IMG/VR virus record: IMGVR_UViG_2579778856_000005
Reading direction: 5' to 3' (one strand)
DNA from: a virus
Lineage: Duplodnaviria; Heunggongvirae; Uroviricota; Caudoviricetes
Length of the DNA: 33,871 nt
Part shown: positions 2,194 through 25,874 of the stretch, in pieces
Numbering within the stretch: position 1 is the first letter of the stretch
Layout: each line of letters starts with the position of its first letter
Made by a program: the position numbers and the translations under genes
Notes under the pieces: generated by a model
Databases searched by the model: none
The model's input: only the letters and a program-made list of their open reading frames with translations
What the model was told of the DNA's origin: nothing

Positions 2194-2612
2194 GCTCTGC
2201 ATTGCCTGTTGGTGTGCCTGTTCCATGGCCCACCGCCACACCGCCAGCAGGCTGGTTAAAGTGCGACGGGCGCGCCTTTACAAAAGAACAATATCCTGTT
2301 CTGGCCAGAGTCTACCCGACCCTCCGTCTTCCCGATTTACGCGGTGAGTTTATCCGTGGATGGGACGACGGGCGAAAAGTGGATACAGGGCGCGATCTGC
2401 TTTCACGGCAGGATGGTACAAGTTTTTCTCATTACGCAGGTAATTTTGACATTGGGTCTGGTCATTCAATCAATAACTATGACCAAATCGTTGACAACCA
2501 ACCTGGATTCTCCCGTTTTTCATTTGCAGGTCCTTCGCGAGGCGATGGGGTTAATTATGTGACCATTCGTCCCCGTAACATTGCGTTTAATTACATCGTA
2601 AGGGCGGCATAG
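2184..2612 (+). CDS. Silent tail-fibre C-terminal cassette 1 (promoterless, no ATG; collar-like conserved block plus variable tip)
   Basis: Open frame starting inside the crossover site. Encodes GEGSALPVGVPVPWPTATPPAGWLKCDGRAF...LPDLRGEFIRGWDDGRKVDTGR, then a unique ~58-aa tip, then the conserved end RPRNIAFNYIVRAA. Confidence 0.75.
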   Translation: MGEGSALPVGVPVPWPTATPPAGWLKCDGRAFTKEQYPVLARVYPTLRLPDLRGEFIRGWDDGRKVDTGRDLLSRQDGTSFSHYAGNFDIGSGHSINNYDQIVDNQPGFSRFSFAGPSRGDGVNYVTIRPRNIAFNYIVRAA

Positions 2613-2633
2613 AAACGTTGGTTTAGGAGAAGG
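2608..2633 (+). other. Crossover site B in front of cassette 2
   Basis: CATAGAAACG-TT-GGTTTAGGAGAAGG; same architecture as site A, with the conserved half abutting the repeated coding block. Confidence 0.6.
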
Positions 2634-2652
2634 CTCGGCGCTACCCGTTGGT

Positions 2653-3126
2653 GTGCCTGTTCCGTGGCCCACCGCCACACCGCCAGCAGGCTGGTTAAAG
2701 TGCGACGGGCGCGCCTTTACAAAAGAACAATATCCTGTTCTGGCCAGAGTCTACCCGACCCTCCGTCTTCCCGATTTGCGCGGTGAGTTTATCCGTGGAT
2801 GGGACGACGGGCGCAAAGTTGATACGGGGCGTTCATTGCTAAGTGGTCAGGCTGCAACATTTATTCGTACAGCTTTGCAGGATTATTACGGTTACGATCT
2901 GAATACTAATGTCAAAGTAGGTATCGCTTTTGCTACTGCTGATTCTGTTATAACCGTTGGAAACCCAGCTAATCCTAAAGCAGGAAATAATAGCGATTAT
3001 GTTCCTGCATCAGCAGATAACTCTATAACGGGTATTCAAAGGACAGCGGAGGATAATTTTACCGGGGCATGGATATCAATGCGCCCCCGCAATGTTGCGT
3101 TTAATTACATCGTAAGGGCCGCATAA
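2653..3126 (+). CDS. Silent tail-fibre C-terminal cassette 2
   Basis: The frame is open from just after the cassette-1 stop through the site (..RNVGLGEGSALPVGVPVPWP..). Same conserved block, unique AT-rich ~82-aa tip, same C-terminal RPRNVAFNYIVRAA. No ATG or RBS. Confidence 0.75.
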   Translation: MPVPWPTATPPAGWLKCDGRAFTKEQYPVLARVYPTLRLPDLRGEFIRGWDDGRKVDTGRSLLSGQAATFIRTALQDYYGYDLNTNVKVGIAFATADSVITVGNPANPKAGNNSDYVPASADNSITGIQRTAEDNFTGAWISMRPRNVAFNYIVRAA

Positions 3127-3147
3127 AAACGTTGGTTTAGGAGAAGG
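3122..3147 (+). other. Crossover site C in front of cassette 3
   Basis: CATAAAAACG-TT-GGTTTAGGAGAAGG. Confidence 0.6.
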
Positions 3148-3166
3148 CTCGGCGCTACCCGTTGGT

Positions 3167-3598
3167 GTGCCTGTTCCGTGGCCCACCGCCACACCGCCAG
3201 CAGGCTGGTTAAAGTGCGACGGGCGCGCCTTTACAAAAGAACAATATCCTGTTCTGGTCAGAGTCTACCCGACCCTCCGTCTTCCCGATTTGCGCGGTGA
3301 GTTTATCCGTGGATGGGACGGTGGTCGCAAGGTTGATACCGGGCGTGCGCTACTTTCATTTCAGGAAGGGACTATCGTATCCGGTTTTGATGATAATGAT
3401 ACCGGAGATATCAGTTCGCTCGGCTCTACACAATACGGATTTGGTGACGCTTTAACCTCTAATCAACTGGGGGTCTTAAATGGCAAAAAGTGGATATTTG
3501 ATGCATCCTCTAAAGGTGCACAAAGATATGACTGGTGGGCTTATGTATCAGCTCGCCCCCGCAATATCGCATTTAACTATATCGTGAGGGCGGCGTGA
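3167..3598 (+). CDS. Silent tail-fibre C-terminal cassette 3
   Basis: Same conserved block, unique ~70-aa tip, C-terminal RPRNIAFNYIVRAA. Confidence 0.75.
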   Translation: MPVPWPTATPPAGWLKCDGRAFTKEQYPVLVRVYPTLRLPDLRGEFIRGWDGGRKVDTGRALLSFQEGTIVSGFDDNDTGDISSLGSTQYGFGDALTSNQLGVLNGKKWIFDASSKGAQRYDWWAYVSARPRNIAFNYIVRAA

Positions 3599-3604
3599 TA
3601 CCGT

Positions 3605-4219
3605 TCAGCCGGCAAGCGCCAGTGGCGCTTCCGGCCAGCTGATTTCAGGTGCCTTGCTGATATCCAGTGCGTTCAGCTCGTCGATATAATCCAGCACGGC
3701 GTTCAGTTTTGCCGTTTCTTCTGGTTTCAGACTGCGACCAGCACGCAGTTTGAGGTTGATAAGATCGACGGACGCCATCGCCTGTTTCACCCGTTGCTGG
3801 CGTTGCTGTCTGGCAACCTCCAGTTCTGCGGCTCGCTGCCGTTCAGTATCGGTTACCCACGCCTCACCGTTCCAGGTATCCCATGGCGTGGCTGGCTGTT
3901 TTGTGGTGGTGTCCGCCGGGTAATCACCCGGTTGGGTAATCAGAACGGGGTTACCGTTCTCCGTGCTGTATACCGTCTCGCCGCGGTGATCAGGCACATG
4001 CTCCCACCCGTTCAGCGTGGCAGTCCGGCAAACCACGTAACCCGAAATTGCTTCCGGCGGTGCATCGGCGCACGAATGTGCCGGAGTACCCACCCCAAGG
4101 GCGAGATACTCCACAGAGGATGAGGTGTATTCCCGGGTTTCCTCGTCATAGTGATATACAGTGATATCGCCCGCTACAGTGGCGATACCGTTTTCATCCA
4201 GAACTGCAGTGTTACTCAT
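3605..4219 (-). CDS. Tail fibre assembly protein (Tfa family)
   Basis: 204 aa immediately downstream of the fibre gene (TAATG overlap). GEAWV motif and C-terminal LNAVLDYIDELNALDISKAPEISWPEAP, typical of lambda Tfa / Mu U-type chaperones. Confidence 0.85.
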   Translation of the reverse strand: MSNTAVLDENGIATVAGDITVYHYDEETREYTSSSVEYLALGVGTPAHSCADAPPEAISGYVVCRTATLNGWEHVPDHRGETVYSTENGNPVLITQPGDYPADTTTKQPATPWDTWNGEAWVTDTERQRAAELEVARQQRQQRVKQAMASVDLINLKLRAGRSLKPEETAKLNAVLDYIDELNALDISKAPEISWPEAPLALAG

Positions 4220-5550
4220 TAAACTGCCCTCACAATGTAATTAAGTGCAATGCTACGGGGTCTGACAGTGATACCCTTCGCATACCCGCTTCTGATAGAG
4301 GTCAGAATAGTAGCCTGCATACCATTGTCTGACATTGCCACGACAGGATCGCTGAATGTTGTCCCGTCCGGCATTTTAAAGCTGCCCTCACGAAGGTCTG
4401 TAATGGAATCTTCATTGTTGAATCCCATGCCGACTATCCCCGAGGTTCCCGTAGTGTCCTGGTTATAATAATCCAGCATTGCTGTTCTTAACAGCGTTGC
4501 CCCTTGTGCGGACAGCAACTTACGTCCTGTATCAACTTTGCGCCCGTCGTCCCATCCACGGATAAACTCACCGCGTAAATCGGGAAGACGGAGGGTCGGG
4601 TAGACTCTGGCCAGAACAGGATATTGTTCTTTTGTAAAGGCGCGCCCGTCGCACTTTAACCAGCCTGCTGGCGGTGTGGCAGTGGGCCACGGAACAGGTA
4701 CACCAACGGGCAGCGCCGAGCCTTCCCCCAAACCAAGGTAATTGAGGACATCTTTTATACTGCCCTTAGCGATAATAGCGCGACCAATAGCTGTAAGGGT
4801 TGCCAGCTCTGCGCGGTCTGCTCCGGTAAAATAAGGCAACCGATCTGCTGCAGTGGCAAGTCCTGCCAGAGCAGTGAGCGTGGCATCTGCCGGTTGTTTT
4901 CCGTTTGCCAGATCGTATGCAGCCTTGACCGCTTTCGGTGTGGCGGCCAGTATTTCAGACGTGCTGTTGATGGCACTGCTCAATTGTACGGTGCCTTTTG
5001 CCGTCAGCGAGGCAGCAGGCACTCCCGTTATCTGACTCCACGGGTGAGTGTGGCTGACGGGCGCCTTGCCGGCTGCAAGGTCGTATGCAGCCTTGACCGC
5101 CTTCGGCGTGGCAGCCTCAGTTTCTGATTGACTGTCCGTGGCGCTGCTCAGTTGTACGGTGCCTTTTGCCGTCAGTGAAGCCGCAGGCACTCCCGTTATC
5201 TGACTCCACGGGTGAGTGTGGCTGGCAGGCGCCTTGCCGGCTGCCAGGTCGTATGCAGCCTTGACCGCTTTTGGTGTGGCGGCCAGCGTTTCAGAGGTGC
5301 TGTTGGTGGCACTGCTCAGTTGGGTGAACCCCTTAGCTGTCAGTGTCGCGTCCGGGTGGTTACGGGAACGTACGTGTTCAGCCAGTGACTGTGCGGCTTC
5401 CTCCGTTTTCTTCTTCAGCCATTTCGTCCTGTTTGCCAGTTGCCGGGGGGCTCGATTTGATATCCCGTCTGCACCACCCAGAACCGGATCTGATGTCTCC
5501 AGTTGATAGATATTTTCTTCCCACTTTTCTGTTTCATTCAGGTTTCCCAT
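4219..5550 (-). CDS. Tail fibre protein (currently expressed copy)
   Basis: 443 aa from the ATG at 5550 (GGGAG RBS). Shaft repeats (TAKGTVQLSSA..ETEAATPKAVKAAYDLA..SHTHPWSQITGVPA). The C-terminal third carries the same collar-like block as the three cassettes and ends RPRSIALNYIVRAV. Confidence 0.9.
   Translation of the reverse strand: MGNLNETEKWEENIYQLETSDPVLGGADGISNRAPRQLANRTKWLKKKTEEAAQSLAEHVRSRNHPDATLTAKGFTQLSSATNSTSETLAATPKAVKAAYDLAAGKAPASHTHPWSQITGVPAASLTAKGTVQLSSATDSQSETEAATPKAVKAAYDLAAGKAPVSHTHPWSQITGVPAASLTAKGTVQLSSAINSTSEILAATPKAVKAAYDLANGKQPADATLTALAGLATAADRLPYFTGADRAELATLTAIGRAIIAKGSIKDVLNYLGLGEGSALPVGVPVPWPTATPPAGWLKCDGRAFTKEQYPVLARVYPTLRLPDLRGEFIRGWDDGRKVDTGRKLLSAQGATLLRTAMLDYYNQDTTGTSGIVGMGFNNEDSITDLREGSFKMPDGTTFSDPVVAMSDNGMQATILTSIRSGYAKGITVRPRSIALNYIVRAV
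4716..4745 (-). other. Crossover site D inside the expressed fibre gene (inverted relative to A-C)
   Basis: Reverse complement reads AATTACC-TT-GGTTTGGGGGAAGG. The conserved half is identical to site A; the site spans codons N-Y-L-G-L-G-E-G at the constant/variable boundary. Confidence 0.6.
4880..5340. repeat. About 170-bp in-frame tandem repeats (three copies) in the tail-fibre shaft
   Basis: gtcgtatgcagccttgaccgc recurs at ~4920, ~5090 and ~5258; the protein motif TAKGTVQLSSA...AATPKAVKAAYDLAAGK..SHTHPWSQITGVPAASL is repeated. Confidence 0.6.
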
Positions 5551-7565: not shown

Positions 7566-7619
7566 GGGGGCAGTATTGCCCCCGTGCGGGAACGCTGATA
7601 TTAAAGGCGTTTAAAAAGC

Positions 7620-9567: not shown

Positions 9568-10451
9568 CACACACTCCTCGTCAGTATTCTGGCGGCCATT
9601 GCACTTAATCCCGGAGACATGCGGTTGAATGCTGTTCCGACGGCGTTAAGCTGCCCGGAAACGGTATCCAGAGCACCTGCAATATTTCTTTTGTCCACAC
9701 CACTCAGCGCAGACTGTGCCTGCTGTACATACGTGGCTGCTTCGCTGGCTGTTCTGGCCAGACTGATGGCATCGGGCATGGATTCAGAGAGTGCGTTAAA
9801 CGCCGGAACACTTTTCCCCAGAGCCCCGGAGATATTACCCAGTCCGCTCATCAGCCCCGGCACACGGGTCAGTGCGACAACGGGGTTATCCTTCATTTTC
9901 TGTGTCACCCGAACGGCGCTGATAGTGGTCTGGAGTACAGACTGCGCCTGTTTCGCATAGTTGACGCCGTTGCGGATGAACTGCGCCACCCCTGAAGGTG
10001 AAGGTATGGCACCGGAGACCGCCCCGACACCCGGGAGCTTCGTGCGTATTGCCGGTGGTTGCAGAGGATTTTTCGGGTCACCGGTGTATTCCCGGAGAGA
10101 CACGGTGGCACTGACAGCCAGCACGTTGCCGGTACTGTCAGTCTGCTCGCTGGTTGCAGTCACATCGGTGATCACGAACCAGCCGCGATAGTCACCGTTG
10201 CCGAAGACCAGCGCCAGTGCCTGATGGGCTTTCATGGCTGTTCGCAGTCTCGCCAGCTCCACATCGGGTACACAATAATGCTGATGGAAAACCAGAGTTA
10301 TCTGGATTTCGTCCAGCCTGTCGCCGACGAACTGCAGACCAGGCTTACCCCCGATGCGGGCATGCTCCGCATAATCGACGCCGAACGTGGCCTCGAAGCC
10401 GTCCCAGTAGGTAATCAGCTCAAACTCAATATCACCCAGTACGGCAAACAT
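9567..10451 (-). CDS. Tail protein with P2 gpU-like N-terminal domain and a long Ala/Ser-rich C-terminal extension
   Basis: 294 aa; the N-terminal ~125 aa (GKPGLQFVG..ITL..ALALVFGNGDYRGWFVITDVTATSEQ) resembles the gpU tail-terminator family. Intact only in this copy. Confidence 0.7.
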   Translation of the reverse strand: MFAVLGDIEFELITYWDGFEATFGVDYAEHARIGGKPGLQFVGDRLDEIQITLVFHQHYCVPDVELARLRTAMKAHQALALVFGNGDYRGWFVITDVTATSEQTDSTGNVLAVSATVSLREYTGDPKNPLQPPAIRTKLPGVGAVSGAIPSPSGVAQFIRNGVNYAKQAQSVLQTTISAVRVTQKMKDNPVVALTRVPGLMSGLGNISGALGKSVPAFNALSESMPDAISLARTASEAATYVQQAQSALSGVDKRNIAGALDTVSGQLNAVGTAFNRMSPGLSAMAARILTRSV

Positions 10452-13402
10452 CAGCGGTACTCCTTACGTTGTTTCTGAGCCAGCAGACGCTCCAGCATTT
10501 TTTCCAGCTCATGCAGACTCATATTCAGGGCACCAGTCAGTCCTGCAGGCGCTGTGGTTTCCCTGCCATTGAGGAAAAACTGAGGATTAAAGCTGACCTG
10601 GATACCACCAGACGTTCCACCGCCGGTTGCAGCTGCACCACGGCCTGAATATCCGGCAGCCAGGATTTCAGGCGAGGGGATACGGGGAACATCCGGTGTC
10701 ATCTCATTTGCCAGACGTTGCCCTGGTAAAATCGATGCCCGGGTGGAGAGCGGAATAGCGGGCATGGAAGACAAACTATTGATTACGGCTCCGATCGCAT
10801 TTTTAGCAGACGACATAAACCCATTGATATCGGGCAACGGCATACTGAAGCGAACACCTGAAGTGTTATCCCGTATTTCTGGCCCCTGAATGCTCACGGG
10901 CATTCTGGGGAGCAGTTCACTGGCCATTCGCTGCCCGGCCAGAGCTGCAAGCGGAGTGGTCCGCTGCAGGCCAATGGCGGCCCCCTGCGCGATATTGTCA
11001 CCAAAGCCCATAAACACGCGGCTCGGCGAATGAATGCCCAGCTTTTCGCTGAACCAGCCACTGATGCTGTCACCCATTCCGGTTACACTGGATTTGAGCG
11101 ACTCCCATTTGTTTTTGATACCGTTAATCAGACCGTCGACAAGATGGCCACCGAAGTCGGTGAACTTTGCCGGCAGATCAACACCAAGATATTTCAGCGC
11201 AGCTGCAAAGGCTTTATAGAGCAGACCTGCCGGCGACCAGTTAATCAGCAGCTTACCAGTTCCCGCGATACCGCCGTTAAAGGCTTCCTGAATGTCAGCC
11301 CAGCACTGTTTAAACCAGCTACTGATGCTGTCACCCATTCCGGTTACACTGGATTTGAGCGACCCCCATTTGTTTTTGATACCGTTAATCAGACCGTCGA
11401 TAAGATGGCCACCGAAGTCGGTGAACTTTGCCGGCAGAGCAACGCCGAAATATTTCAGCGCAGCCGCAAAGGCTTTATAGAGCAGGCCTGCCGGCGACCA
11501 GTTAATCAGCAACTTACCAATTCCCACAATGCCGCCGTTAAAGGCTTCCTGAATGTCAGCCCAGCGCTGTTTAAACCAACCACTGACAGCCCCCCAGTTG
11601 CGGTAGATAAGGTAAGCTGCTGTCGCGACAGCGGTGATAACGAGACCGATGGGATTCATCATCAGCGCTCGCCCAATCCAGAGAACGGCACGTGCAGCGC
11701 TCATAAAACCGCGAACGAGGCTGCCCGCCAGAACTTTGCTGAGTTTCAGTCCTCCGCTGGTCAGTCGGCTGAATCCAGTGACAAGCCAGCGTAATTTGCC
11801 ACCTTCTCCGAGTGCGGTAGTCAGTCGATGCCAGTTGGTCCGGAGTAAAACAGTAGTTTTCCAGACGTTCACAAAGGGGGAAATAAGGAGATTCAGCCCC
11901 AGTTTGAGACCAATAGTCGCTATCTTAATCGCAAGGAGCGCACTGATGAGCTTAAAAGCCCCACTGACAAATTGCGGGTGAGTCGCTACCCAGTGTTTTG
12001 TCCCCTGAATGAGTGGGAGCAGTTCCTGAGTCAGAGAAATAAAAGATGGAGCTAATTGATCGCCCAGCGTAATTGCCAGATCGCGACTGCTGACCATAAG
12101 TGTTTTAGTGGCTTCAAGGGGAGATTTCAGCCGCTGATCATAAGCACTGGCAAGCAAATCGTTATCCGCAGCCCTGAGAGCACCGGCACGGATCTCTCGA
12201 TATCTGTCCATGTTGGCCAGCATCGGGCGGATAAATGCCATGACCTGCATATCCGCGAACATATCGCCCAGACCAAAGTTTTTCGCCAGAGCCTGAAGTG
12301 CCTCATCTCTTGCCGTATCATTCTTTATTTTCATGGCTGATTTGAAGCCGGCCAGCGCTTCGGGGCTTTTGGCATTGAGGTAACGTTCTATAACACTCAA
12401 CATCCCTTCAATCGGAGAGATCCCCGCAGCTTTATAACTCGCAATAGATCCCTGCAAATCAATACCCAGATCAGCAAACTGTTTCTGAGTATCGCGGGCA
12501 AAAATTTTGGTAAGAAAGTTTTTAAAATTATTGGCTGCTTCGTCGGTGGAACCTGCACCGATTTTTGCTATCTGGAGACTGGCCCCGATTTCAGCAACAG
12601 CCTCTTTTCCACTGGCAATACCCGCCATCATTGGGGCCAGGGACTGCATCCACTTGACCTGATCCGGGATTTCAAATGACCCCTGGTCACCGGCATAAGC
12701 CATAATATTCTGAACGGCACCAAAATCTCTGGCCGCGCCTTTCAGGGAGTTTTGCCAGACTGCGGCCACTTTTGCCCAGTCCTGAGCAGACGTGCGTGTT
12801 GCCGTTGCCGCGCGGGCAATATCCGGCATCAGAAAACCGATATCTGACACATTATCAATATTGTCGCTGATGAGTGAACCCACCGCCTCCTGCAGCTCAT
12901 CCTGATACTGATTGTATTTAAGCGCCCAGCCTTTTATCTGTCCGGCAAGTGCATCCCGCGTTTTATTGTCATATTTTGCGGTGATCGACATATCAATCAT
13001 TTTGTCCTGAAAAGACATGGACTGCTGAACGGCAGGGGAAACCGTATGATAAACAGTCTGTGCCATGCCATACGCTTCAATCCCCTGACCATACAGCGCC
13101 ATGCGGTTAGCTTTCAGCGCATCACTGGTAGCGGATGCCGCTGACAGACGGCGCTGCTGGCGCTCAATTTGCTCCATGGTGCGGCTTACCCGCAGCAGCT
13201 CGCTGTTGAGATGCTGCATCCGGGAAGAACCCAGTTGACCATAACGTTCTGTTGCACGGGTTAAAGCGTTCTGACGTTCCTGCAGGCGGCGTGAGGTATC
13301 GCTCAGGGAATCAAGCGCACGGCGGGTACCGCTCATTGCAGAACGGAATGTGCTGCCAATCATCCCGCCGATAACAACGCCGACTGAAAACTGTCCCGAC
13401 AT
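10451..13402 (-). CDS. Tail tape measure protein (copy 1)
   Basis: 983 aa, N-terminal coiled coil, internal 86-aa tandem repeat, GGAGG RBS. Confidence 0.9.
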   Translation of the reverse strand: MSGQFSVGVVIGGMIGSTFRSAMSGTRRALDSLSDTSRRLQERQNALTRATERYGQLGSSRMQHLNSELLRVSRTMEQIERQQRRLSAASATSDALKANRMALYGQGIEAYGMAQTVYHTVSPAVQQSMSFQDKMIDMSITAKYDNKTRDALAGQIKGWALKYNQYQDELQEAVGSLISDNIDNVSDIGFLMPDIARAATATRTSAQDWAKVAAVWQNSLKGAARDFGAVQNIMAYAGDQGSFEIPDQVKWMQSLAPMMAGIASGKEAVAEIGASLQIAKIGAGSTDEAANNFKNFLTKIFARDTQKQFADLGIDLQGSIASYKAAGISPIEGMLSVIERYLNAKSPEALAGFKSAMKIKNDTARDEALQALAKNFGLGDMFADMQVMAFIRPMLANMDRYREIRAGALRAADNDLLASAYDQRLKSPLEATKTLMVSSRDLAITLGDQLAPSFISLTQELLPLIQGTKHWVATHPQFVSGAFKLISALLAIKIATIGLKLGLNLLISPFVNVWKTTVLLRTNWHRLTTALGEGGKLRWLVTGFSRLTSGGLKLSKVLAGSLVRGFMSAARAVLWIGRALMMNPIGLVITAVATAAYLIYRNWGAVSGWFKQRWADIQEAFNGGIVGIGKLLINWSPAGLLYKAFAAALKYFGVALPAKFTDFGGHLIDGLINGIKNKWGSLKSSVTGMGDSISSWFKQCWADIQEAFNGGIAGTGKLLINWSPAGLLYKAFAAALKYLGVDLPAKFTDFGGHLVDGLINGIKNKWESLKSSVTGMGDSISGWFSEKLGIHSPSRVFMGFGDNIAQGAAIGLQRTTPLAALAGQRMASELLPRMPVSIQGPEIRDNTSGVRFSMPLPDINGFMSSAKNAIGAVINSLSSMPAIPLSTRASILPGQRLANEMTPDVPRIPSPEILAAGYSGRGAAATGGGTSGGIQVSFNPQFFLNGRETTAPAGLTGALNMSLHELEKMLERLLAQKQRKEYR
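11040..11585. repeat. 258-bp in-frame tandem repeat inside the tape measure gene (two full copies plus a partial third)
   Basis: ccagc(c/t)actgatgctgtcacccattccggttacactggatttgagcga recurs at 11055 and 11313; the protein repeat is WFKQ(R/C)WADIQEAFNGG...SVTGMGDSIS. Confidence 0.8.
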
Positions 13403-13477
13403 AGTGGTTAACCTCCGGGGAAGGTGAAAAGACGTGAGGGGATAACGCAGAACAGCCGCTACTGGCGGCTGTCTGTA

Positions 13478-13895
13478 CTATGATTTGTCGCCGTACTCGC
13501 TTTTGATTTGCTCTTCAGCCTGCTCCAGCCACATCTCCAGATCGTCAGTATCGAGGGCATCAATCTCCCCCGGCTGAAACCGGAACCATCTCGCCAGCAG
13601 CCCCTGCGCCTGCGTCAGCGCCCTGGTTGCTCTCACCCATCCCCGTGATGAGCTGAAATCGTTTCTGTAACTGCAGGTAATCAGCCAGATCCATATTGTC
13701 GAGATCTTCCGGGAGAAGACCAGTACTGCGGGCAATCAGCGGTTCGTCCCAGTCTGCCGGGTTTTTGCTGATTTTGCGCACCTGCTTCAGGTCTTTTACC
13801 GTCAGGCGTTTCAGTTCAACCAGCTCAATTCTGGTGCCTGCAGCAGTGGTGAAGGGATAAGACAATTTAAAAGTATCGGATGGGGTCTGTGACAT
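13478..13895 (-). CDS. Tail assembly chaperone, putative frameshifted long form (GT / E+E' analogue)
   Basis: A second ORF (13478-13735) overlaps the 3' end of the chaperone ORF in the +1 (equivalently -2) frame and extends it by ~28 aa of plausible protein sequence (..IDALDTDDLEMWLEQAEEQIKSEYGDKS). Confidence 0.5.
13560..13895 (-). CDS. Tail assembly chaperone (lambda G / P2 E analogue), short form
   Basis: 111 aa, acidic, between tube and tape measure; AGGAG RBS. Confidence 0.8.
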   Translation of the reverse strand: MSQTPSDTFKLSYPFTTAAGTRIELVELKRLTVKDLKQVRKISKNPADWDEPLIARSTGLLPEDLDNMDLADYLQLQKRFQLITGMGESNQGADAGAGAAGEMVPVSAGGD

Positions 13896-13949
13896 GATTG
13901 TGCTCCTGTGTAAGTTCAGGGCAGTATGTCGGGAGAAGCGCGTGACGGA

Positions 13950-13990
13950 TATTAAAGGAGATTAAGAAGAAGGGGCCGGAGCCCCTGTGA
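13950..13990 (-). terminator. Putative intrinsic terminator/attenuator between tube region and chaperone
   Basis: Perfect palindrome AGGGGC-CGGA-GCCCCT (13971-13986) followed on the minus-strand transcript by a T-rich run (ttcttcttaatctccttt). Confidence 0.5.
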
Positions 13991-13992
13991 TG

Positions 13993-14274
13993 TCAGCAAG
14001 TGCGAAACCCCTTGCAGTTACGCAGGAAAGCGATGAGAAGCGTCTTTCCCTCAGATTTGCCGATGCCGGAGAACCAGTGGTCGGGAGGCTCCCATGCTTC
14101 AATCAAATCCGCCAGTTTGCGGGCCTTTGAACGTGTGCAGTCAATCGGGTCATTGGTTTTACGGGTATTAAAAAGGGTTTCCACCCCCGGAATATCAAGG
14201 AGGGTAAACCACGTACCATTTGACATGCCCAGTGCCGCACATCGTCCTCCTTTATCCGTCAGTTCAACACTCAC
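13993..14274 (-). CDS. Hypothetical small protein between tube and chaperone
   Basis: 93-codon open frame in a 380-bp gap; start codon ambiguous (GTG at 14274, or an internal ATG with a distant AAGGAGGA). Confidence 0.35.
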   Translation of the reverse strand: MSVELTDKGGRCAALGMSNGTWFTLLDIPGVETLFNTRKTNDPIDCTRSKARKLADLIEAWEPPDHWFSGIGKSEGKTLLIAFLRNCKGFRTC

Positions 14275-14276
14275 CG

Positions 14277-14798
14277 TCAGCCCCCGATATTGATACGGTA
14301 GTCAGTCAGTTGATCAACACCGCCGACCCGGAAGATGTTGGCCAGATAGTCCAGTTGCAGCAGCTCTTCACCATCCAGTACCTGTCTGATATACGTGCAG
14401 GTGAAGCTACTGGAGAACTCGGCGTTCTCGTGCTGTTTGAACGTCCCCAGCGGGTTCTTCTTGAACATAATCGTCAGGAAGGTGACCAGCGGGATTTCGT
14501 CAATCAGCCCCTGCGAGCTGTAGCGCTGGACGCTGGAACGACACTGCAGTGCCAGCGACCTGTACGGGTTCGCGGCAGACAGCATCGCATCGCGGTAAAA
14601 GCTGTTCCATTTGATTTCGCCTTCCAGCTTGTCAAAACCAGCCGGGAGTTCCACCTTACCCACCATCCCCAGCGCCTTGTGTTCCTGCATAATCATGGAG
14701 ACATCGGGGAGTTTAACTTCCTCAGCCCGTCCCAGCAGGTTAGTACCATCCAGATAGATGTTGGCATTCGTGATGCGGTTTATCTCAATCTTTGACAT
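14277..14798 (-). CDS. Tail tube protein (copy 1)
   Basis: 173 aa, ATGA overlap with the sheath stop; contractile-tail tube family by size and position. Confidence 0.9.
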   Translation of the reverse strand: MSKIEINRITNANIYLDGTNLLGRAEEVKLPDVSMIMQEHKALGMVGKVELPAGFDKLEGEIKWNSFYRDAMLSAANPYRSLALQCRSSVQRYSSQGLIDEIPLVTFLTIMFKKNPLGTFKQHENAEFSSSFTCTYIRQVLDGEELLQLDYLANIFRVGGVDQLTDYRINIGG

Positions 14799-16089
14799 CA
14801 GTTGCCCCCTTTCAGGGTTAACAGGTATTCCGAGGTGATCTCAGTCTCAAACGTCAGTCGCTCCAGCGGCGGTGGTGGCGTATATTTGTAGCTCAGCAAC
14901 AGGTGCCCGGCGGCCAGCTCCGTCTCCGGATTGCGGGCCGGATCAAACCAGCAACGGAAGCCCAGTACCGCACCATCACCAGTCATTTTGCGACCGTAGG
15001 CGTTGACCGACTCCGTCAGTGCATCAATCAGCGCCTGAGTAATCGGCATGTCGATGTACTGCTGGCTGAAATAACGAATGGACTCGTTGATCACATCACC
15101 GGTGCGGCGAACGTTCTCAAAGTTACGCATATGGGTGACCGTTGGCCATGCTGCCGTCCGGTTACCCCACAGACGAAGGCCGCTGCCGTAACTGCTGAAT
15201 ACCGTGGTGATCCCCTGTTCGTTAAGCAGGTTCACCTCACTCTGCGGGTCATCAATCATCGCGGACAGCTGGCGCTCCACGCCGGTGATCCCCAGAATCT
15301 CCTGATTGGAGGATGACCACCAGTAGCCCTTGTCCAGATCGACTCTGGCACGCAGACCTGCTGCACGCTGGCTGAGCGGCTCCAGACGCTCTGTGTTTGT
15401 CACCGGGTCATATACCTTCACATGCGGATAGCACAGACGGACGCGGTCGGAGCTGGTATTGAAGTTGATGGTGCCTTCCGGGCCACGACCTGCCAGAGCC
15501 TGTGCAAAGGTGGTACCGACAGGCGCATCAATGTAGGTTACCGCGCCCAGCTTCTCTGCCATGGCGATAAGCTCAACTGCGACACTCTTCTGGGTGCAGA
15601 ACACCGGCGCAATCAGAATTTTGGCGAAATAGCCGTACAGGTTGAAGCTGTCGTTAAGCAGCTTCATGCCGGTTCGGTTTCCGGCGCTGTTCACCCCGCC
15701 GATGATGTCCGCCGCAGTCACCTTCGACGGGTCCGCGTACTCATAGCTCACCTTCACGCTGCCACCGGCCTCAATAGCCTTGCCCAGGTTCGTGAGCACA
15801 CCCGCCTGCGCATCAACACGGTAGTCCGTGTTCGCCGTGTGGGTGGTGCTGCCTTCACTGTTTTTCACCACCACATTAGCGACAACCGGATGCGCCAGTC
15901 TGGCCTGCCCTGTCGATTTGTCAAAGGTAACCACCTCATCCTCGATCGCCGTTTTATGTTTCGCCGGGTCGAGGACGTTAATGACCAGAACGGTGCCTGC
16001 ACCATGGTCATAAATCGCATCCAGCGCCTGCGGAATGGTAAAGCCGGTGAACTGGCTGCCAAATGCCGCTGCGTCTTTCTCAGACAGGC
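14798..16089 (-). pseudogene. Tail sheath protein, 5'-truncated fragment (lacks ~45 N-terminal codons)
   Basis: Matches the intact sheath at 20649-22076 up to the duplication junction at 16089, then reads into out-of-frame U-derived sequence. Confidence 0.8.
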
Positions 16090-16302
16090 TGTTCGCAGTC
16101 TCGCCAGCTCCACATCGGGTACACAATAATGCTGATGGAAAACCAGAGTTATCTGGATTTCGTCCAGCCTGTCGCCGACGAACTGCAGACCAGGCTTACC
16201 CCCGATGCGGGCATGCTCCGCATAATCGACGCCGAACGTGGCCTCGAAGCCGTCCCAGTAGGTAATCAGCTCAAACTCAATATCACCCAGTACGGCAAAC
16301 AT
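16090..16302 (-). pseudogene. gpU-like tail protein, 3'-truncated fragment (first 71 codons)
   Basis: Identical to the N-terminus of the 9567-10451 protein (MFAVLGDIEFELITYWDGFEATFGVDYAEHARIGGKPGLQFVG...) then fused out of frame to sheath antisense sequence. Confidence 0.8.
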
Positions 16303-19253
16303 CAGCGGTACTCCTTACGTTGTTTCTGAGCCAGCAGACGCTCCAGCATTTTTTCCAGCTCATGCAGACTCATATTCAGGGCACCAGTCAGTCCTGCAGG
16401 CGCTGTGGTTTCCCTGCCATTGAGGAAAAACTGAGGATTAAAGCTGACCTGGATACCACCAGACGTTCCACCGCCGGTTGCAGCTGCACCACGGCCTGAA
16501 TATCCGGCAGCCAGGATTTCAGGCGAGGGGATACGGGGAACATCCGGTGTCATCTCATTTGCCAGACGTTGCCCTGGTAAAATCGATGCCCGGGTGGAGA
16601 GCGGAATAACGGGCATGGAAGACAAACTATTGATTACGGCTCCGATCGCATTTTTAGCAGACGACATAAACCCATTGATATCGGGCAACGGCATACTGAA
16701 GCGAACACCTGAAGTGTTATCCCGTATTTCTGGCCCCTGAATGCTCACGGGCATTCTGGGGAGCAGTTCACTGGCCATTCGCTGCCCGGCCAGAGCTGCA
16801 AGCGGAGTGGTCCGCTGCAGGCCAATGGCGGCCCCCTGCGCGATATTGTCACCAAAGCCCATAAACACGCGGCTCGGCGAATGAATGCCCAGCTTTTCGC
16901 TGAACCAGCCACTGATGCTGTCGCCCATTCCGGTTACACTGGATTTGAGCGACTCCCATTTGTTTTTGATACCGTTAATCAGACCATCGACAAGATGGCC
17001 ACCGAAGTCGGTAAACTTTGCCGGCAGATCAACACCAAGATATTTCAGCGCAGCTGCAAAGGCTTTATAGAGCAGACCTGCCGGCGACCAGTTAATCAGC
17101 AGCTTACCAGTTCCCGCGATACCGCCGTTAAAGGCTTCCTGAATGTCAGCCCAGCATTGTTTAAACCAGCTACTGATGCTGTCACCCATTCCGGTTACAC
17201 TGGATTTGAGCGACCCCCATTTGTTTTTGATACCGTTAATCAAACCGTCGATAAGATGGCCACCGAAGTCGGTGAACTTTGCCGGCAGAGTAACGCCGAA
17301 ATATTTCAGCGCAGCCGCAAAGGCTTTATAGAGCAGGCCTGCCGGCGACCAGTTAATCAGCAGCTTACCAGTTCCCGCGATACCGCCGTTAAAGGCTTCC
17401 TGAATGTCAGCCCAGCGCTGTTTAAACCAGCCACTGACTGCCCCCCAGTTGCGGTAGATAAGGTAAGCTGCTGCCGCGACAGCGGTGATAACGAGACCGA
17501 TGGGATTCATCATCAGCGCTCGCCCAATCCAGAGAACGGCACGTGCAGCGCTCATAAAACCGCGAACGAGGCTGCCCGCCAGAACTTTGCTGAGTTTCAG
17601 TCCTCCGCTGGTCAGTCGGCTGAATCCAGTGACAAGCCAGCGTAATTTGCCACCTTCTCCGAGTGCGGTAGTCAGTCGATGCCAGTTGGTCCGGAGTAAA
17701 ACAGCAGTTTTCCAGACGTTCACAAAGGGGGAAATAAGGAGATTCAGCCCCAGTTTGAGACCAACAGTCGCTATCTTAATCGCAAGGAGCGCACTGATGA
17801 GCTTAAAAGCCCCACTGACAAATTGCGGGTGAGTCGCCACCCAGTGTTTTGTCCCCTGAATGAGTGGGAGCAAGTCCTGAGTCAGAGAAATAAAAGATGG
17901 AGCTAATTGATCGCCCAGCGTAATTGCCAGATCGCGACTGCTGACCATAAGTGTTTTAGTGGCTTCAAGGGGAGATTTCAGCCGCTGATCATAAGCACTG
18001 GCAAGCAAATCGTTATCCGCAGCCCTGAGAGCACCGGCACGGATCTCTCGATATCTGTCCATGTTGGCCAGCATCGGGCGGATAAATGCCATGACCTGCA
18101 TATCCGCGAACATATCGCCCAGACCAAAGTTTTTCGCCAGAGCCTGAAGTGCCTCATCTCTTGCCGTATCATTCTTTATTTTCATGGCTGATTTGAAGCC
18201 GGCCAGCGCTTCGGGGCTTTTGGCATTGAGGTAACGTTCTATAACACTCAACATCCCTTCAATCGGAGAGATCCCCGCAGCTTTATAACTCGCAATAGAT
18301 CCCTGCAAATCAATACCCAGATCAGCAAACTGTTTCTGAGTATCGCGGGCAAAAATTTTGGTAAGAAAGTTTTTAAAATTATTGGCTGCTTCGTCGGTGG
18401 AACCTGCACCGATTTTTGCTATCTGGAGACTGGCCCCGATTTCAGCAACAGCCTCTTTTCCACTGGCAAGACCCGCCATCATTGGGGCCAGGGACTGCAT
18501 CCACTTGACCTGATCCGGGATTTCAAATGACCCCTGGTCACCGGCATAAGCCATAATATTCTGAACGGCACCAAAATCTCTGGCCGCACCTTTCAGGGAG
18601 TTTTGCCAGACTGCGGCCACTTTTGCCCAGTCCTGAGCAGACGTGCGTGTTGCCGTTGCCGCGCGGGCAATATCCGGCATCAGAAAACCGATATCTGACA
18701 CATTATCAATATTGTCGCTGATGAGTGAACCCATCGCCTCCTGCAGCTCATCCTGATACTGATTGTATTTAAGCGCCCAGCCTTTTATCTGTCCGGCAAG
18801 TGCATCCCGCGTTTTATTGTCATATTTTGCGGTGATCGACATATCAATCATTTTGTCCTGAAAAGACATGGACTGCTGAACGGCAGGGGAAACCGTATGA
18901 TAAACAGTCTGTGCCATGCCATACGCTTCAATCCCCTGACCATACAGCGCCATGCGGTTAGCTTTCAGCGCATCACTGGTAGCGGATGCCGCTGACAGAC
19001 GGCGCTGCTGGCGCTCAATTTGCTCCATGGTGCGGCTTACCCGCAGCAGCTCGCTGTTGAGATGCTGCATCCGGGAAGAACCCAGTTGACCATAACGTTC
19101 TGTTGCACGGGTTAAAGCGTTCTGACGTTCCTGCAGGCGGCGTGAGGTATCGCTCAGGGAATCAAGCGCACGGCGGGTACCGCTCATTGCAGAACGGAAT
19201 GTGCTGCCAATCATCCCGCCGATAACAACGCCGACTGAAAACTGTCCCGACAT
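16302..19253 (-). CDS. Tail tape measure protein (copy 2)
   Basis: 983 aa; about 9 amino-acid differences from copy 1. Confidence 0.9.
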   Translation of the reverse strand: MSGQFSVGVVIGGMIGSTFRSAMSGTRRALDSLSDTSRRLQERQNALTRATERYGQLGSSRMQHLNSELLRVSRTMEQIERQQRRLSAASATSDALKANRMALYGQGIEAYGMAQTVYHTVSPAVQQSMSFQDKMIDMSITAKYDNKTRDALAGQIKGWALKYNQYQDELQEAMGSLISDNIDNVSDIGFLMPDIARAATATRTSAQDWAKVAAVWQNSLKGAARDFGAVQNIMAYAGDQGSFEIPDQVKWMQSLAPMMAGLASGKEAVAEIGASLQIAKIGAGSTDEAANNFKNFLTKIFARDTQKQFADLGIDLQGSIASYKAAGISPIEGMLSVIERYLNAKSPEALAGFKSAMKIKNDTARDEALQALAKNFGLGDMFADMQVMAFIRPMLANMDRYREIRAGALRAADNDLLASAYDQRLKSPLEATKTLMVSSRDLAITLGDQLAPSFISLTQDLLPLIQGTKHWVATHPQFVSGAFKLISALLAIKIATVGLKLGLNLLISPFVNVWKTAVLLRTNWHRLTTALGEGGKLRWLVTGFSRLTSGGLKLSKVLAGSLVRGFMSAARAVLWIGRALMMNPIGLVITAVAAAAYLIYRNWGAVSGWFKQRWADIQEAFNGGIAGTGKLLINWSPAGLLYKAFAAALKYFGVTLPAKFTDFGGHLIDGLINGIKNKWGSLKSSVTGMGDSISSWFKQCWADIQEAFNGGIAGTGKLLINWSPAGLLYKAFAAALKYLGVDLPAKFTDFGGHLVDGLINGIKNKWESLKSSVTGMGDSISGWFSEKLGIHSPSRVFMGFGDNIAQGAAIGLQRTTPLAALAGQRMASELLPRMPVSIQGPEIRDNTSGVRFSMPLPDINGFMSSAKNAIGAVINSLSSMPVIPLSTRASILPGQRLANEMTPDVPRIPSPEILAAGYSGRGAAATGGGTSGGIQVSFNPQFFLNGRETTAPAGLTGALNMSLHELEKMLERLLAQKQRKEYR
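16891..17436. repeat. 258-bp tandem repeat inside tape measure gene, copy 2
   Basis: Same repeat as 11040-11585, offset by 5,851 bp. Confidence 0.8.
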
Positions 19254-19410
19254 AGTGGTTAACCTCCGGGGAAGGTGAAAAGACGTGAGGGGATAACGCA
19301 GAACAGCCGCTACTGGCGGCTGTCTGTACTATGATTTGTCGCCGTACTCGCTTTTGATTTGCTCTTCAGCCTGCTCCAGCCACATCTCCAGATCGTCAGT
19401 ATCGAGGGCA

Positions 19411-19746
19411 TCAATCTCCCCCGGCTGAAACCGGAACCATCTCGCCAGCAGCCCCTGCGCCTGCGTCAGCGCCCTGGTTGCTCTCACCCATCCCCGTGAT
19501 GAGCTGAAATCGTTTCTGTAACTGCAGGTAATCAGCCAGATCCATATTGTCGAGATCCTCCGGGAGAAGACCAGTACTGCGGGCAATCAGCGGTTCGTCC
19601 CAGTCTGCCGGGTTTTTGCTGATTTTGCGCACCTGCTTCAGGTCTTTTACCGTCAGGCGTTTCAGTTCAACCAGCTCAATTCTGGTGCCTGCAGCAGTGG
19701 TGAAGGGATAAGACAATTTAAAAGTATCGGATGGGGTCTGTGACAT
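19411..19746 (-). CDS. Tail assembly chaperone (copy 2)
   Basis: Identical to 13560-13895; overlapping +1-frame ORF at 19329-19586. Confidence 0.8.
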   Translation of the reverse strand: MSQTPSDTFKLSYPFTTAAGTRIELVELKRLTVKDLKQVRKISKNPADWDEPLIARSTGLLPEDLDNMDLADYLQLQKRFQLITGMGESNQGADAGAGAAGEMVPVSAGGD

Positions 19747-19843
19747 GATTGTGCTCCTGTGTAAGTTCAGGGCAGTATGTCGGGAGAAGCGCGTGACGGA
19801 TATTAAAGGAGATTAAGAAGAAGGGGCCGGAGCCCCTGTGATG

Positions 19844-20125
19844 TCAGCAAGTGCGAAACCCCTTGCAGTTACGCAGGAAAGCGATGAGAAGCGTCTTTCC
19901 CTCAGATTTGCCGATGCCGGAGAACCAGTGGTCGGGAGGCTCCCATGCTTCAATCAAATCCGCCAGTTTGCGGGCCTTTGAACGTGTGCAGTCAATCGGG
20001 TCATTGGTTTTACGGGTATTAAAAAGGGTTTCCACCCCCGGAATATCAAGGAGGGTAAACCACGTACCATTTGACATGCCCAGTGCCGCACATCGTCCTC
20101 CTTTATCCGTCAGTTCAACACTCAC
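19844..20125 (-). CDS. Hypothetical small protein (copy 2)
   Basis: Duplicate of 13993-14274. Confidence 0.35.
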   Translation of the reverse strand: MSVELTDKGGRCAALGMSNGTWFTLLDIPGVETLFNTRKTNDPIDCTRSKARKLADLIEAWEPPDHWFSGIGKSEGKTLLIAFLRNCKGFRTC

Positions 20126-20127
20126 CG

Positions 20128-20649
20128 TCAGCCCCCGATATTGATACGGTAGTCAGTCAGTTGATCAACACCGCCGACCCGGAAGATGTTGGCCAGATAG
20201 TCCAGTTGCAGCAGCTCTTCACCATCCAGTACCTGTCTGATATACGTGCAGGTGAAGCTACTGGAGAACTCGGCGTTCTCGTGCTGTTTGAACGTCCCCA
20301 GCGGGTTCTTCTTGAACATAATCGTCAGGAAGGTGACCAGCGGGATTTCGTCAATCAGCCCCTGCGAGCTGTAGCGCTGGACGCTGGAACGACACTGCAG
20401 TGCCAGCGACCTGTACGGGTTCGCGGCAGACAGCATCGCATCGCGGTAAAAGCTGTTCCATTTGATTTCGCCTTCCAGTTTGTCAAAACCAGCCGGGAGT
20501 TCCACCTTACCCACCATCCCCAGCGCCTTGTGTTCCTGCATAATCATGGAGACATCGGGGAGTTTGACTTCCTCAGCCCGTCCCAGCAGGTTAGTACCAT
20601 CCAGATAGATGTTGGCATTCGTGATGCGGTTTATCTCAATCTTTGACAT
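20128..20649 (-). CDS. Tail tube protein (copy 2)
   Basis: Protein identical to copy 1. Confidence 0.9.
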   Translation of the reverse strand: MSKIEINRITNANIYLDGTNLLGRAEEVKLPDVSMIMQEHKALGMVGKVELPAGFDKLEGEIKWNSFYRDAMLSAANPYRSLALQCRSSVQRYSSQGLIDEIPLVTFLTIMFKKNPLGTFKQHENAEFSSSFTCTYIRQVLDGEELLQLDYLANIFRVGGVDQLTDYRINIGG

Positions 20650-22076
20650 CAGTTGCCCCCTTTCAGGGTTAACAGGTATTCCGAGGTGATCTCAGTCTCA
20701 AACGTCAGTCGCTCCAGCGGCGGTGGTGGCGTATATTTGTAGCTCAGCAACAGGTGCCCGGCGGCCAGCTCCGTCTCCGGATTGCGGGCCGGATCAAACC
20801 AGCAACGGAAGCCCAGTACCGCACCATCACCAGTCATTTTGCGACCGTAGGCGTTGACCGACTCCGTCAGTGCATCAATCAGCGCCTGAGTAATCGGCAT
20901 GTCGATGTACTGCTGGCTGAAATAACGAATGGACTCGTTGATCACATCACCGGTGCGGCGAACGTTCTCAAAGTTACGCATATGGGTGACCGTTGGCCAT
21001 GCTGCCGTCCGGTTACCCCACAGACGAAGGCCGCTGCCGTAACTGCTGAATACCGTGGTGATCCCCTGTTCGTTAAGCAGGTTCACCTCACTCTGCGGGT
21101 CATCAATCATCGCGGACAGCTGGCGCTCCACGCCGGTGATCCCCAGAATCTCCTGATTGGAGGATGACCACCAGTAGCCCTTGTCCAGATCGACTCTGGC
21201 ACGCAGACCTGCTGCACGCTGGCTGAGCGGCTCCAGACGCTCTGTGTTTGTCACCGGGTCATATACCTTCACATGCGGATAGCACAGACGGACGCGGTCG
21301 GAGCTGGTATTGAAGTTGATGGTGCCTTCCGGGCCACGACCTGCCAGAGCCTGTGCAAAGGTGGTACCGACAGGCGCATCAATGTAGGTTACCGCGCCCA
21401 GCTTCTCTGCCATGGCGATAAGCTCAACTGCGACACTCTTCTGGGTGCAGAACACCGGCGCAATCAGAATTTTGGCGAAATAGCCGTACAGGTTGAAGCT
21501 GTCGTTAAGCAGCTTCATGCCGGTTCGGTTTCCGGCGCTGTTCCCCCCGCCGATGATGTCCGCCGCAGTCACCTTCGACGGGTCCGCGTACTCATAGCTC
21601 ACCTTCACGCTGCCACCGGCCTCAATAGCCTTGCCCAGGTTCGTGAGCACACCCGCCTGCGCATCAACACGGTAGTCCGTGTTCGCCGTGTGGGTGGTGC
21701 TGCCTTCACTGTTTTTCACCACCACATTAGCGACAACCGGATGCGCCAGTCTGGCCTGCCCTGTCGATTTGTCAAAGGTAACCACCTCATCCTCGATCGC
21801 CGTTTTATGTTTCGCCGGGTCGAGGACGTTAATGACCAGAACGGTGCCTGCACCATGGTCATAAATCGCATCCAGCGCCTGCGGAATGGTAAAGCCGGTG
21901 AACTGGCTGCCAAATGCCGCTGCGTCTTTCTCAGACAGGCACTGTACCAGCGTATTGACATCCCCCATCGGGGCGGTACCAATCAGGCCAATAACGGCAG
22001 ATTTCACCGTTTTAACCGGGCGGGCACCGTTTTCCACCTCAATGGTTTCGGGACCATGCAGATAGTTAGCTGCCAT
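20649..22076 (-). CDS. Tail sheath protein (intact copy)
   Basis: 475 aa, MAANYLHGPETIEVENGARPVKTVKSAVIGLIGTAP..; contractile sheath family. Confidence 0.9.
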   Translation of the reverse strand: MAANYLHGPETIEVENGARPVKTVKSAVIGLIGTAPMGDVNTLVQCLSEKDAAAFGSQFTGFTIPQALDAIYDHGAGTVLVINVLDPAKHKTAIEDEVVTFDKSTGQARLAHPVVANVVVKNSEGSTTHTANTDYRVDAQAGVLTNLGKAIEAGGSVKVSYEYADPSKVTAADIIGGGNSAGNRTGMKLLNDSFNLYGYFAKILIAPVFCTQKSVAVELIAMAEKLGAVTYIDAPVGTTFAQALAGRGPEGTINFNTSSDRVRLCYPHVKVYDPVTNTERLEPLSQRAAGLRARVDLDKGYWWSSSNQEILGITGVERQLSAMIDDPQSEVNLLNEQGITTVFSSYGSGLRLWGNRTAAWPTVTHMRNFENVRRTGDVINESIRYFSQQYIDMPITQALIDALTESVNAYGRKMTGDGAVLGFRCWFDPARNPETELAAGHLLLSYKYTPPPPLERLTFETEITSEYLLTLKGGN

Positions 22077-23576: not shown

Positions 23577-24530
23577 TTATTTACTGATACCGGTAATGAG
23601 ATACCCGGCATCGCCACCAACCACGGCGACTTTGTAGATATCGGTATAACGGCAGTACTTCACCTTGCCACCGGCTCCGTCGTATTTGTCGGCAACAGGC
23701 ATCCCCTTACGACGCAGGGTGTAGCCGAAGGACGGCTCGTTCTCGTCCGCGCTGTCCGCCCCCGGCTGCGGTTTGCCGACATAGTGCAGCATCAGATTGT
23801 CTCCCCAGATATCCGCCGGCACGCTGTTCTTATCCATTGCCGCTTTCATGGACGGCAGGGAGACTGGGGCACCGATGACGATCTCTTCGATCTGAAAGAG
23901 GTCCTGCAGGATTTCTGTGGTGATGCGCTTGCGTTCGTTGGCTCCGATGGCGGCCTGAATCGCCGGGTGGAACTTCAGCAGCGCCATCACGCCGGCCCCC
24001 ATGGTCATCAGGTTAGGACGCAGCCCCGTGGCCGTACGGACCGCTTCCATACCGGCTTCAATCACCCCGATGGGGTCCCCCTTACCACCGGCCCAGCGAT
24101 CACTGGCTGTCAGTTTTTTGACGTGCCCGGTACGGTAGACCTTTTCATCCTGAGCCAGACGGGCAGCGATAAGTTCACGGCGCAGGTTCACGCCATTCGT
24201 GGCGCGACGGATGGCCTTGCTCTCTTCGTTAAACATGGACTCCGCCTGCTCGCGATAGTCCACCGGCGCAGCCAGATCGTGTTCACCCAGCACCAGGTCC
24301 AGCGTGCCTGTTTTTTCACGGACCAGAACATTGCTGTCCGCCCCGACGGCACGCTCGGTGTCATATTCCACAAAGGCGGTTTTCCCGAAGGTCGGTACAC
24401 GCACGCCTTCCTTGTCCGTCAGCACGACGGGGAAAATACGTTCGCCGATGAATGCGGCATTTTTATAGCCACGGGCGATACTGGTCAGTACCGGATCAAC
24501 GACACGTTTACCTTTTAAGTAATCAGACAT
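23577..24530 (-). CDS. Major capsid protein (Mu T-like)
   Basis: 317 aa, AAGGAGAG RBS, follows the protease/scaffold gene. Confidence 0.85.
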   Translation of the reverse strand: MSDYLKGKRVVDPVLTSIARGYKNAAFIGERIFPVVLTDKEGVRVPTFGKTAFVEYDTERAVGADSNVLVREKTGTLDLVLGEHDLAAPVDYREQAESMFNEESKAIRRATNGVNLRRELIAARLAQDEKVYRTGHVKKLTASDRWAGGKGDPIGVIEAGMEAVRTATGLRPNLMTMGAGVMALLKFHPAIQAAIGANERKRITTEILQDLFQIEEIVIGAPVSLPSMKAAMDKNSVPADIWGDNLMLHYVGKPQPGADSADENEPSFGYTLRRKGMPVADKYDGAGGKVKYCRYTDIYKVAVVGGDAGYLITGISK

Positions 24531-25660: not shown

Positions 25661-25874
25661 TTTGCTGTCCCGCGTTATGTTGTCGGAGACAGTTTGTGAG
25701 AAATGCAGGCCCGGCGATTTTAATCTGCTTTAGAAAACATCAGGGGAGAAGGACAGGGAAAGCAATGCGGTGAACCGGAGGCGGTTATAAAACAGAGGCT
25801 GTAAAGCCTTTATAAAGGTAATACAGCCCCTCATTCGCTGGCAATGATAAATCACCCGCCTGAAGAGAGAAAAC

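Follow-up and report, generated by a model that had tools for sequence, protein, structure and literature searches.

The window analyzed here, a stretch of 33,871 nucleotides (IMG/VR virus record IMGVR_UViG_2579778856_000005), is a BcepMu-type (Bcepmuvirus) Mu-like transposable E. coli prophage, adjoined by the host gene aroA (1–1284). Around the interval between the tail tube and tail chaperone genes it shares 99.9% identity with Escherichia phage PhiKM (PQ738613). The late genes are all encoded on the minus strand, in the order sheath, tube, interval, gpE-type chaperone, tape measure (10451–13402) and gpU onward, and every feature of the interval lies on this strand as well. We found that the 381 bp of the interval (13896–14276) hold a small gene, hereafter orf93, followed by a terminator-like hairpin and a promoter motif (Table 1). 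An initial annotation of this DNA had delimited the interval correctly and recognized its 93-codon open frame, which is borne out at 13993–14274; it missed the strand, however, and described as unassigned a region to which these three elements can now be allotted. The interval is present in 629 of 5,426 complete E. coli genomes, in which the ORF is annotated as a hypothetical protein, and the prophage type occurs in some 12% of the complete genomes of this species (~630). No RNA family of Rfam matched the window at gathering thresholds.

Table 1. Positions of the genes, signals and candidate regulatory elements discussed in the text; positions refer to the window unless another locus is named.
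Feature	Position	Strand	Details
Tail tube gene (P2 FII type)	14277–14798	-	Pfam Phage_tube, 180.5 bits; 100% identical to the PhiKM tube protein
Tube TGA stop	14277–14279	-	
GGGGG, Shine-Dalgarno-like run	14281–14285	-	6 nt upstream of the orf93 start, inside the last tube codons; sequence read
orf93	13993–14274	-	93 codons, GTG start, 10.3 kDa, pI 8.4; PHROG 1239, related to DUF7739
Hairpin AGGGGC-UCCG-GCCCCU	13971–13986	-	6-bp stem, 5 G:C and 1 A:U; UNCG-type tetraloop
U-rich tail of hairpin, UCUUCUU	13964–13970	-	Interrupted, 5/7 U
TTAA-N6-TTAA dyad, proposed Mor/C-family activator site	13952–13965	-	Conserved block in relatives
Spacer between proposed activator site and -10	13929–13951	-	Hypervariable (column conservation <70%), without -35 hexamer
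Predicted -10 hexamer, CATACT	13923–13928	-	Conserved in relatives
Shine-Dalgarno of chaperone gene, AGGAG	13903–13907	-	Sequence read; conserved leader CTGAACTTACACAGGAG
gpE-type tail assembly chaperone gene	13560–13895	-	Downstream neighbor of the interval; Pfam Phage_TAC_7, 74.8 bits; ATG 13893–13895
Sister motif A, TTAACGCGCTTTAAAATC-N18-TGATGCTG	33157–33200	-	Upstream of holin gene (Pfam Holin_2-3)
Sister motif B, TCTAAAGCAGATTAAAATC-N18-ACAAACTG	25690–25735	-	Upstream of Mu I-equivalent gene (ATG 25660)
Sister motif D, TTAAACGCCTTTAATATC-N18-GCAATACTG	7571–7614	-	Upstream of gp25/gpW-like baseplate gene (Pfam GPW_gp25)
Second interval copy	19747–20127	-	Offset 5851, 0 mismatches
Elements of second copy	orf93 19844–20125; hairpin 19822–19837; dyad 19803–19816; -10 19774–19779	-	Same pattern matches
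Phage_gp49_66 gene of relatives	2712–3011 of locus L028		Also in loci L029–L032, L036, L051, L053, L059, L072, L083, L086 and L093

The second, exact copy of the interval, already listed in the initial annotation, belongs to a 5851-bp tandem duplication (10236–16086 / 16087–21937) that takes in tube, orf93, chaperone and tape measure, along with part of the sheath gene and codons 1–72 of gpU. Of the 27 mismatches between the two copies (99.5% identity), 23 fall within the tape measure gene, where they change 10 amino acids but leave the ORF of either copy intact. The junction carries a 3-bp microhomology (GGC) and is absent from all 5,426 complete E. coli genomes, though ~630 of them harbor the prophage. 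The duplication could have arisen by a rare but real rearrangement involving two alleles of the prophage, or it could be an artefact of the assembly.

Two further features of the window may be mentioned here. An ORF for an E'-like extension (13478–13735, minus strand) begins within the chaperone gene and overlaps its last part, being read in the +1 (equivalently -2) frame. The extension is presumably made by a programmed frameshift, as is usual for tail chaperones; a simple scan of the chaperone/E' overlap revealed no canonical slippery heptamer. At 2184–3598 on the plus strand, three ORFs in tandem, all of which start with a phage tail Collar domain, face the tail-fibre genes and look like alternative tail-fibre C-terminal cassettes. 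In Klebsiella phage KP12, a DNA invertase adjoins the equivalent region.

As for orf93, its GTG codon (14272–14274) lies 2 nt past the tube stop (TGA-CG-GTG). In 94 related loci the aligned start codon is GTG in 63 cases, ATG in 29 and TTG in 2, and GGGGG or GGAGG precedes it at like spacing; residues 1–16 are conserved at the protein level. Two other starts, the in-frame Met17 (14226) and the out-of-frame ATG/GTG codons linked to AAGGAGG (14246–14252), were rejected, since both residues 1–16 and the start position itself are conserved; the AAGGAGG run encodes a conserved D-K-G-G. A sigma-70 promoter for orf93 was not found inside the tube gene. The homology search with the 93-aa translation that the initial annotation proposed returned PHROG 1239 ("unknown function") over the full length (E 4.7e-48, residues 1–93 on profile positions 1–96) and 33 close homologues across Enterobacterales, while an exhaustive profile search yielded 73 cluster representatives at 50% identity, nearly all of about 93 aa. 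The median pairwise dN/dS of orf93 against 49 distinct homologues is 0.117 at dS 0.78, between the values for tube (0.03) and chaperone (0.20), and the AlphaFold model shows a confident alpha/beta fold (pLDDT 90). Judged by these comparisons, orf93 is a true gene whose start is well defined and coupled to the tube stop. The earlier view that the frame has no convincing start signal is thus not upheld, and of the two identities then offered for it, a small accessory protein agrees with the purifying selection and the size of the family, whereas a non-coding spacer has to be discarded on the same grounds.

In PhiKM and KP12, orf93 is annotated as a hypothetical protein. Its match to Pfam DUF7739 (PF24881; 24.7 bits, E 3.5e-5) falls under the curated gathering cut-off of 27 bits, and the DUF7739 model recognizes 7 of 49 orf93 family members at 1e-3, with 47.7 bits for the Edwardsiella homologue. 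By these profile scores orf93 is related to DUF7739, yet formally it is no member.

The hairpin downstream of orf93 is the top-ranked terminator-like site within the 14 kb between 9000 and 23000, with an energy of -12.8 kcal/mol (z = -3.8 vs shuffles). The palindrome with T-run seen by the initial annotation is accordingly there as a 6-bp hairpin, although one of its pairs is A:U, so that it is not purely GC, and its T-run is interrupted. Among 50 unique intergenic sequences of enteric phages the stem is invariant, with UCCG, UUCG, UGCG, AUCA or UUAG in the loop, and in most enteric relatives the tail reads UUUCUUCUU. Hairpins with other stems occupy the same junction in BcepMu (GGCCCGC-UUCG-GCGGGCC, then UUUUUU) and in Ralstonia phage YO107_2 (GCCCAC-UUCG-GUGGGC, then AUUUUU), neither of which carries orf93 there. 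In the Salmonella Infantis SARB27 prophage (locus L113, 2016–2068), CGGGGC-UGCG-GCCCCG is found in a 51-nt tube-chaperone gap without U-tract, promoter motif or orf93. When the stems are compared across lineages, every cell is paired, with compensatory changes on both sides in 5 of the 6 base pairs; the hairpins were anchored by hand, however, and the real evidence in this comparison, as we read the alignment, is that every lineage keeps a hairpin at this junction.

The retention of a hairpin across genera with differing stems fits an intrinsic terminator, and the hairpin with its U-rich tail is probably one, ending the head/sheath/tube/orf93 transcript. The interrupted U-tract suggests that termination would be partial here, and the hairpin of SARB27, being without U-tract, may have, or once have had, another role, e.g., protection of the mRNA 3' end. 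The presence of hairpins at junctions devoid of orf93 fits a terminator older than the orf93 insertion. In one relative (Pantoea stewartii, locus L088, about 3300–4590), the hairpin is split by an insertion sequence of ~1.3 kb, which carries a 319-aa ORF in the opposite orientation, has inverted ends TGAGGGATCCCCACAAA / TTTGTGGGGATTCGTCA and duplicates GGGCTTCGGCCC.

The roughly 70 bp between the hairpin and the chaperone gene probably contain a late promoter dependent on a Mor/C-type activator. In the alignment of the 50 unique sequences, a conserved block, CTTAATCYCCTTTAATATC, is followed by about 18 hypervariable bases and then by a second conserved block, GACATACTG, together with the leader. 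The -10 is kept at like spacing in Photorhabdus (GATACT) and Serratia, and a promoter scan reported no sigma-70-type promoter in the spacer region. Transcription is predicted to start near A13916, a position taken from the -10 alone, and the dyad center at about -42.5 is relative to this predicted start and depends on it. A candidate activator is at hand: the Mor-family protein of PhiKM (Pfam Mor, 147.8 bits), the only one found in the early region of that phage, adjoins gemA, the gene being outside the window, and gp01 of BcepMu is annotated as Mor/C. Our literature search for late promoters of BcepMu-type phages returned no description or regulatory model. The dRNA-seq table of B. cenocepacia J2315 lists no start within chr3 579611–598712, and so none at the BcepMu late promoters; it covers 5' ends only, in biofilm cells that were uninduced, and is therefore uninformative on this point.

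We found that the same arrangement is repeated elsewhere in the window. TWAA-N6-TTAAWATC gives 4 matches (0.01 expected), TTTAAT-N(17-25)-ATACT occurs only at the interval site, its duplicate and 7572–7605 (0.04 expected), and TTAAWATC-N20-AWRCTG matches exactly 4 unique sites, all on the minus strand (0.00–0.02 expected). The four sites occupy the gaps ahead of the holin, Mu I-equivalent, chaperone and gp25/gpW-like genes, which are the heads of the late blocks. The degenerate search pattern was refined after the sites had been seen, so the independent check is provided by KP12 and BcepMu. In KP12 (about 88% identical) the refined pattern matches only three homologous gaps (0.03 expected), including the equivalents of motif A (23992–24025) and motif D (4872–4905), and the fourth site, equivalent to motif B, is present with 2 mismatches and was found by eye. 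In BcepMu, TAAAGCCGATTAAAAGAC occurs twice, upstream of the holin gene gp21 and of gp32, and related motifs precede gp41 and gp49; equivalents thus exist at all four places.

The junction between the Mu G-like and I-like genes has a layout like that of the interval, i.e., a hairpin with a U-run and then the promoter motif. Within this gap (25690–25892), a long stem at about 25790–25830 is followed by GUUUUAU, and another terminator-like hairpin is located at 25875–25892; in BcepMu, an equivalent hairpin is built on a different stem. In turn, the ATG of the gp25/gpW-like gene (7565) lies 6 nt past the predicted -10 of motif D (AATACT, 7572–7577) and has no Shine-Dalgarno sequence, so that transcription from here would give a leaderless mRNA. 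KP12 (locus L107, site 4872–4905, gene start 4866) and BcepMu gp49 share this geometry.

Phage Mu has four late promoters with a -10, no -35 and a C-binding dyad centered at -43.5 (PMC2582627). Similar to these, the candidate promoters described here number four, stand at the heads of late blocks and combine a -10 without -35 with a dyad of ~16 bp whose predicted center is near -43, and the Mor/C-family activator gene is located next to gemA, as seen in PhiKM. Yet, in contrast to Mu, the half-sites are TTAA-N6-TTAA or TAAA-N5-TTAA, a promoter is predicted between tube and chaperone, where none is reported in Mu, and a single Mor-family gene was found in PhiKM in place of the two-step Mor then C cascade. 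The closest parallel to the interval is the gp40-gp41 region of BcepMu (AY539836), in which the tube stop is followed by a GC hairpin (UUCG loop, U-tract), TTAAT...AAAG, GACAAT, a Shine-Dalgarno sequence and the chaperone gene. It differs in having no gene between tube and hairpin, a GGCCCGC/GCGGGCC stem, a perfect U6 and a diverged second half-site.

Taken together, we regard it as fairly likely that the interval is the boundary of two late transcription units, the upstream one ending in a small cargo gene. The upstream transcript would start ahead of the Mu I-equivalent gene and proceed through head, sheath, tube and orf93, the last being translated by coupling to the tube stop and yielding, along with the head, sheath and tube proteins, a 10-kDa alpha/beta accessory protein late in infection. 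The hairpin would stop most of this transcript, with some read-through expected from the interrupted U-tract. A dimer of the single Mor/C-family activator of the phage would then bind the TTAA-N6-TTAA dyad and recruit sigma-70 RNA polymerase to the promoter with the -10 CATACT and no -35. From a start near 13916, the predicted transcript would have a 21-nt leader with AGGAG and continue through chaperone, tape measure, gpU, gpX, gpD and gpV. Two such units would uncouple a very high output of sheath and tube from a low output of chaperone and tape measure.

The initial annotation had proposed that the hairpin is an attenuator lowering the expression of chaperone and tape measure relative to sheath and tube. 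Part of this proposal stands, as the hairpin looks like a real terminator kept across genera and could lower read-through from sheath and tube into chaperone and tape measure. In its pure form it holds that the terminator is leaky, that chaperone and tape measure are expressed by read-through only and that the conserved downstream sequence serves as leader or in translation control; for this, the position of a terminator-like hairpin directly upstream of low-copy tail genes, the leakiness suggested by the interrupted U-tract and the SARB27 prophage, which keeps the hairpin without the downstream motif, can all be cited. We nevertheless find it unlikely. The downstream block alternates conserved, hypervariable and conserved segments like a promoter without -35, it recurs, identically spaced, ahead of three other late operons, including the very first, which has no late transcript upstream to be read through from, and it is found again in KP12 and BcepMu. 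With such a conserved Mor/C-type motif after the hairpin, chaperone and tape measure are most likely expressed from a promoter of their own, and not only by leakage through an attenuator.

It is also conceivable, though quite improbable, that the hairpin acts mainly as an mRNA stabilizer or processing barrier, keeping exonucleases from the 3' end of the sheath-tube-orf93 mRNA and so raising upstream expression. The GC stem, capped by a C(UNCG)G-type tetraloop of high stability (loop variants UCCG, UUCG and UGCG), is consistent with such a role, as is the hairpin retained in SARB27 though it lacks a U-tract. The hairpins of BcepMu and Ralstonia, however, are followed by canonical U5–U6 tracts and most enteric ones by the tail quoted above; stabilizer and terminator roles are, moreover, not mutually exclusive.

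We determined that orf93 is not a constant member of the late gene set. No counterpart of it separates tube from chaperone in BcepMu, vB_E274 and phiE255-type Burkholderia phages (67% identity of the tube protein), in Ralstonia phage YO107_2 (72%), in the Salmonella Infantis SARB27 prophage (74%) and in Pseudomonas phage Bise (53%). In some enteric relatives, a second extra gene (99 aa, Pfam Phage_gp49_66) follows tube and precedes orf93; depending on the phage, the slot ahead of the hairpin thus holds 0, 1 or 2 cargo genes. In turn, orf93 homologues of Edwardsiella and other phages (52–56% identity) sit amid SSB, recombination, HNH and exonuclease genes, and in the early genes of one Mu-like phage a homologue is flanked by DUF3164 and GemA/Mor. 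Gene-caller fusions of orf93 homologues to lambda P and to YopX agree with an early-region placement. From its distribution, orf93 is best described as an accessory cargo gene and not a tail part. That it is instead a lineage-specific tail assembly or structural component, such as an extra chaperone for tube or tape measure, is very improbable: its location between tube and chaperone, its coupling to the tube gene, its predicted late expression and a very weak match to PHROG 1442 ("tail assembly chaperone") would agree with this, but the match is non-significant (E 0.41), BcepMu-type phages with tube proteins 67–77% identical lack the gene, unrelated phages carry its homologues in regions that are early, semi-essential or devoted to recombination, and it shows neither the significant family match nor the universal synteny of the tail-chaperone class.

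In lambdoid phages, extra genes inserted between conserved late genes have been described as morons. orf93 resembles them in that some relatives carry it while others lack it at this position, and in adjoining a predicted terminator. It differs in that no promoter of its own was found, that this terminator seems to predate the gene and that its base composition is not distinctive (52% GC vs 53–54% in neighboring genes).

Searches of NCBIfam, PADLOC and PDB sequences with the family profile gave no matches, Foldseek comparison of the orf93 model with the PDB returned nothing significant (best E 0.06), and only uncharacterised proteins were matched in BFVD. A literature search for DUF7739 retrieved nothing relevant. 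A putative homologue of 2377 aa (P0100, 7 weak stretches) was dismissed as spurious, being a Kelch/laminin-G secreted protein. The small alpha/beta proteins Neisseria DMP12, CdiI (E479) and YfbM share 6–14% sequence identity with orf93 and serve as a lead only; a DMP12-like DNA mimic is acidic, whereas orf93 is basic (pI 8.4) and does not have the acidic surface. One may speculate, with considerable doubt, that the orf93 family (PHROG 1239/DUF7739-related, about 93 aa) is a mobile inhibitor with a DMP12/CdiI-like fold, acting in counter-defence or host take-over and moving between two settings, namely semi-essential early regions in Mu-like and lambdoid phages and the late cargo slot upstream of the putative terminator in enteric BcepMu-type phages. 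If this were true, orf93 in the late slot would ride the strongest late transcript.

Viewed as a whole, the interval is an ordinary operon boundary, in which every element is of a familiar kind and no new principle is involved. Its value lies in what it offers for this group of phages. A small conserved protein, predicted to be highly expressed, and a slot for cargo genes beside tube are candidates for accessory or anti-defence functions, and the late-unit map, with its four predicted activator-dependent promoters and at least two putative terminators, constitutes a testable regulatory model for BcepMu-type phages.
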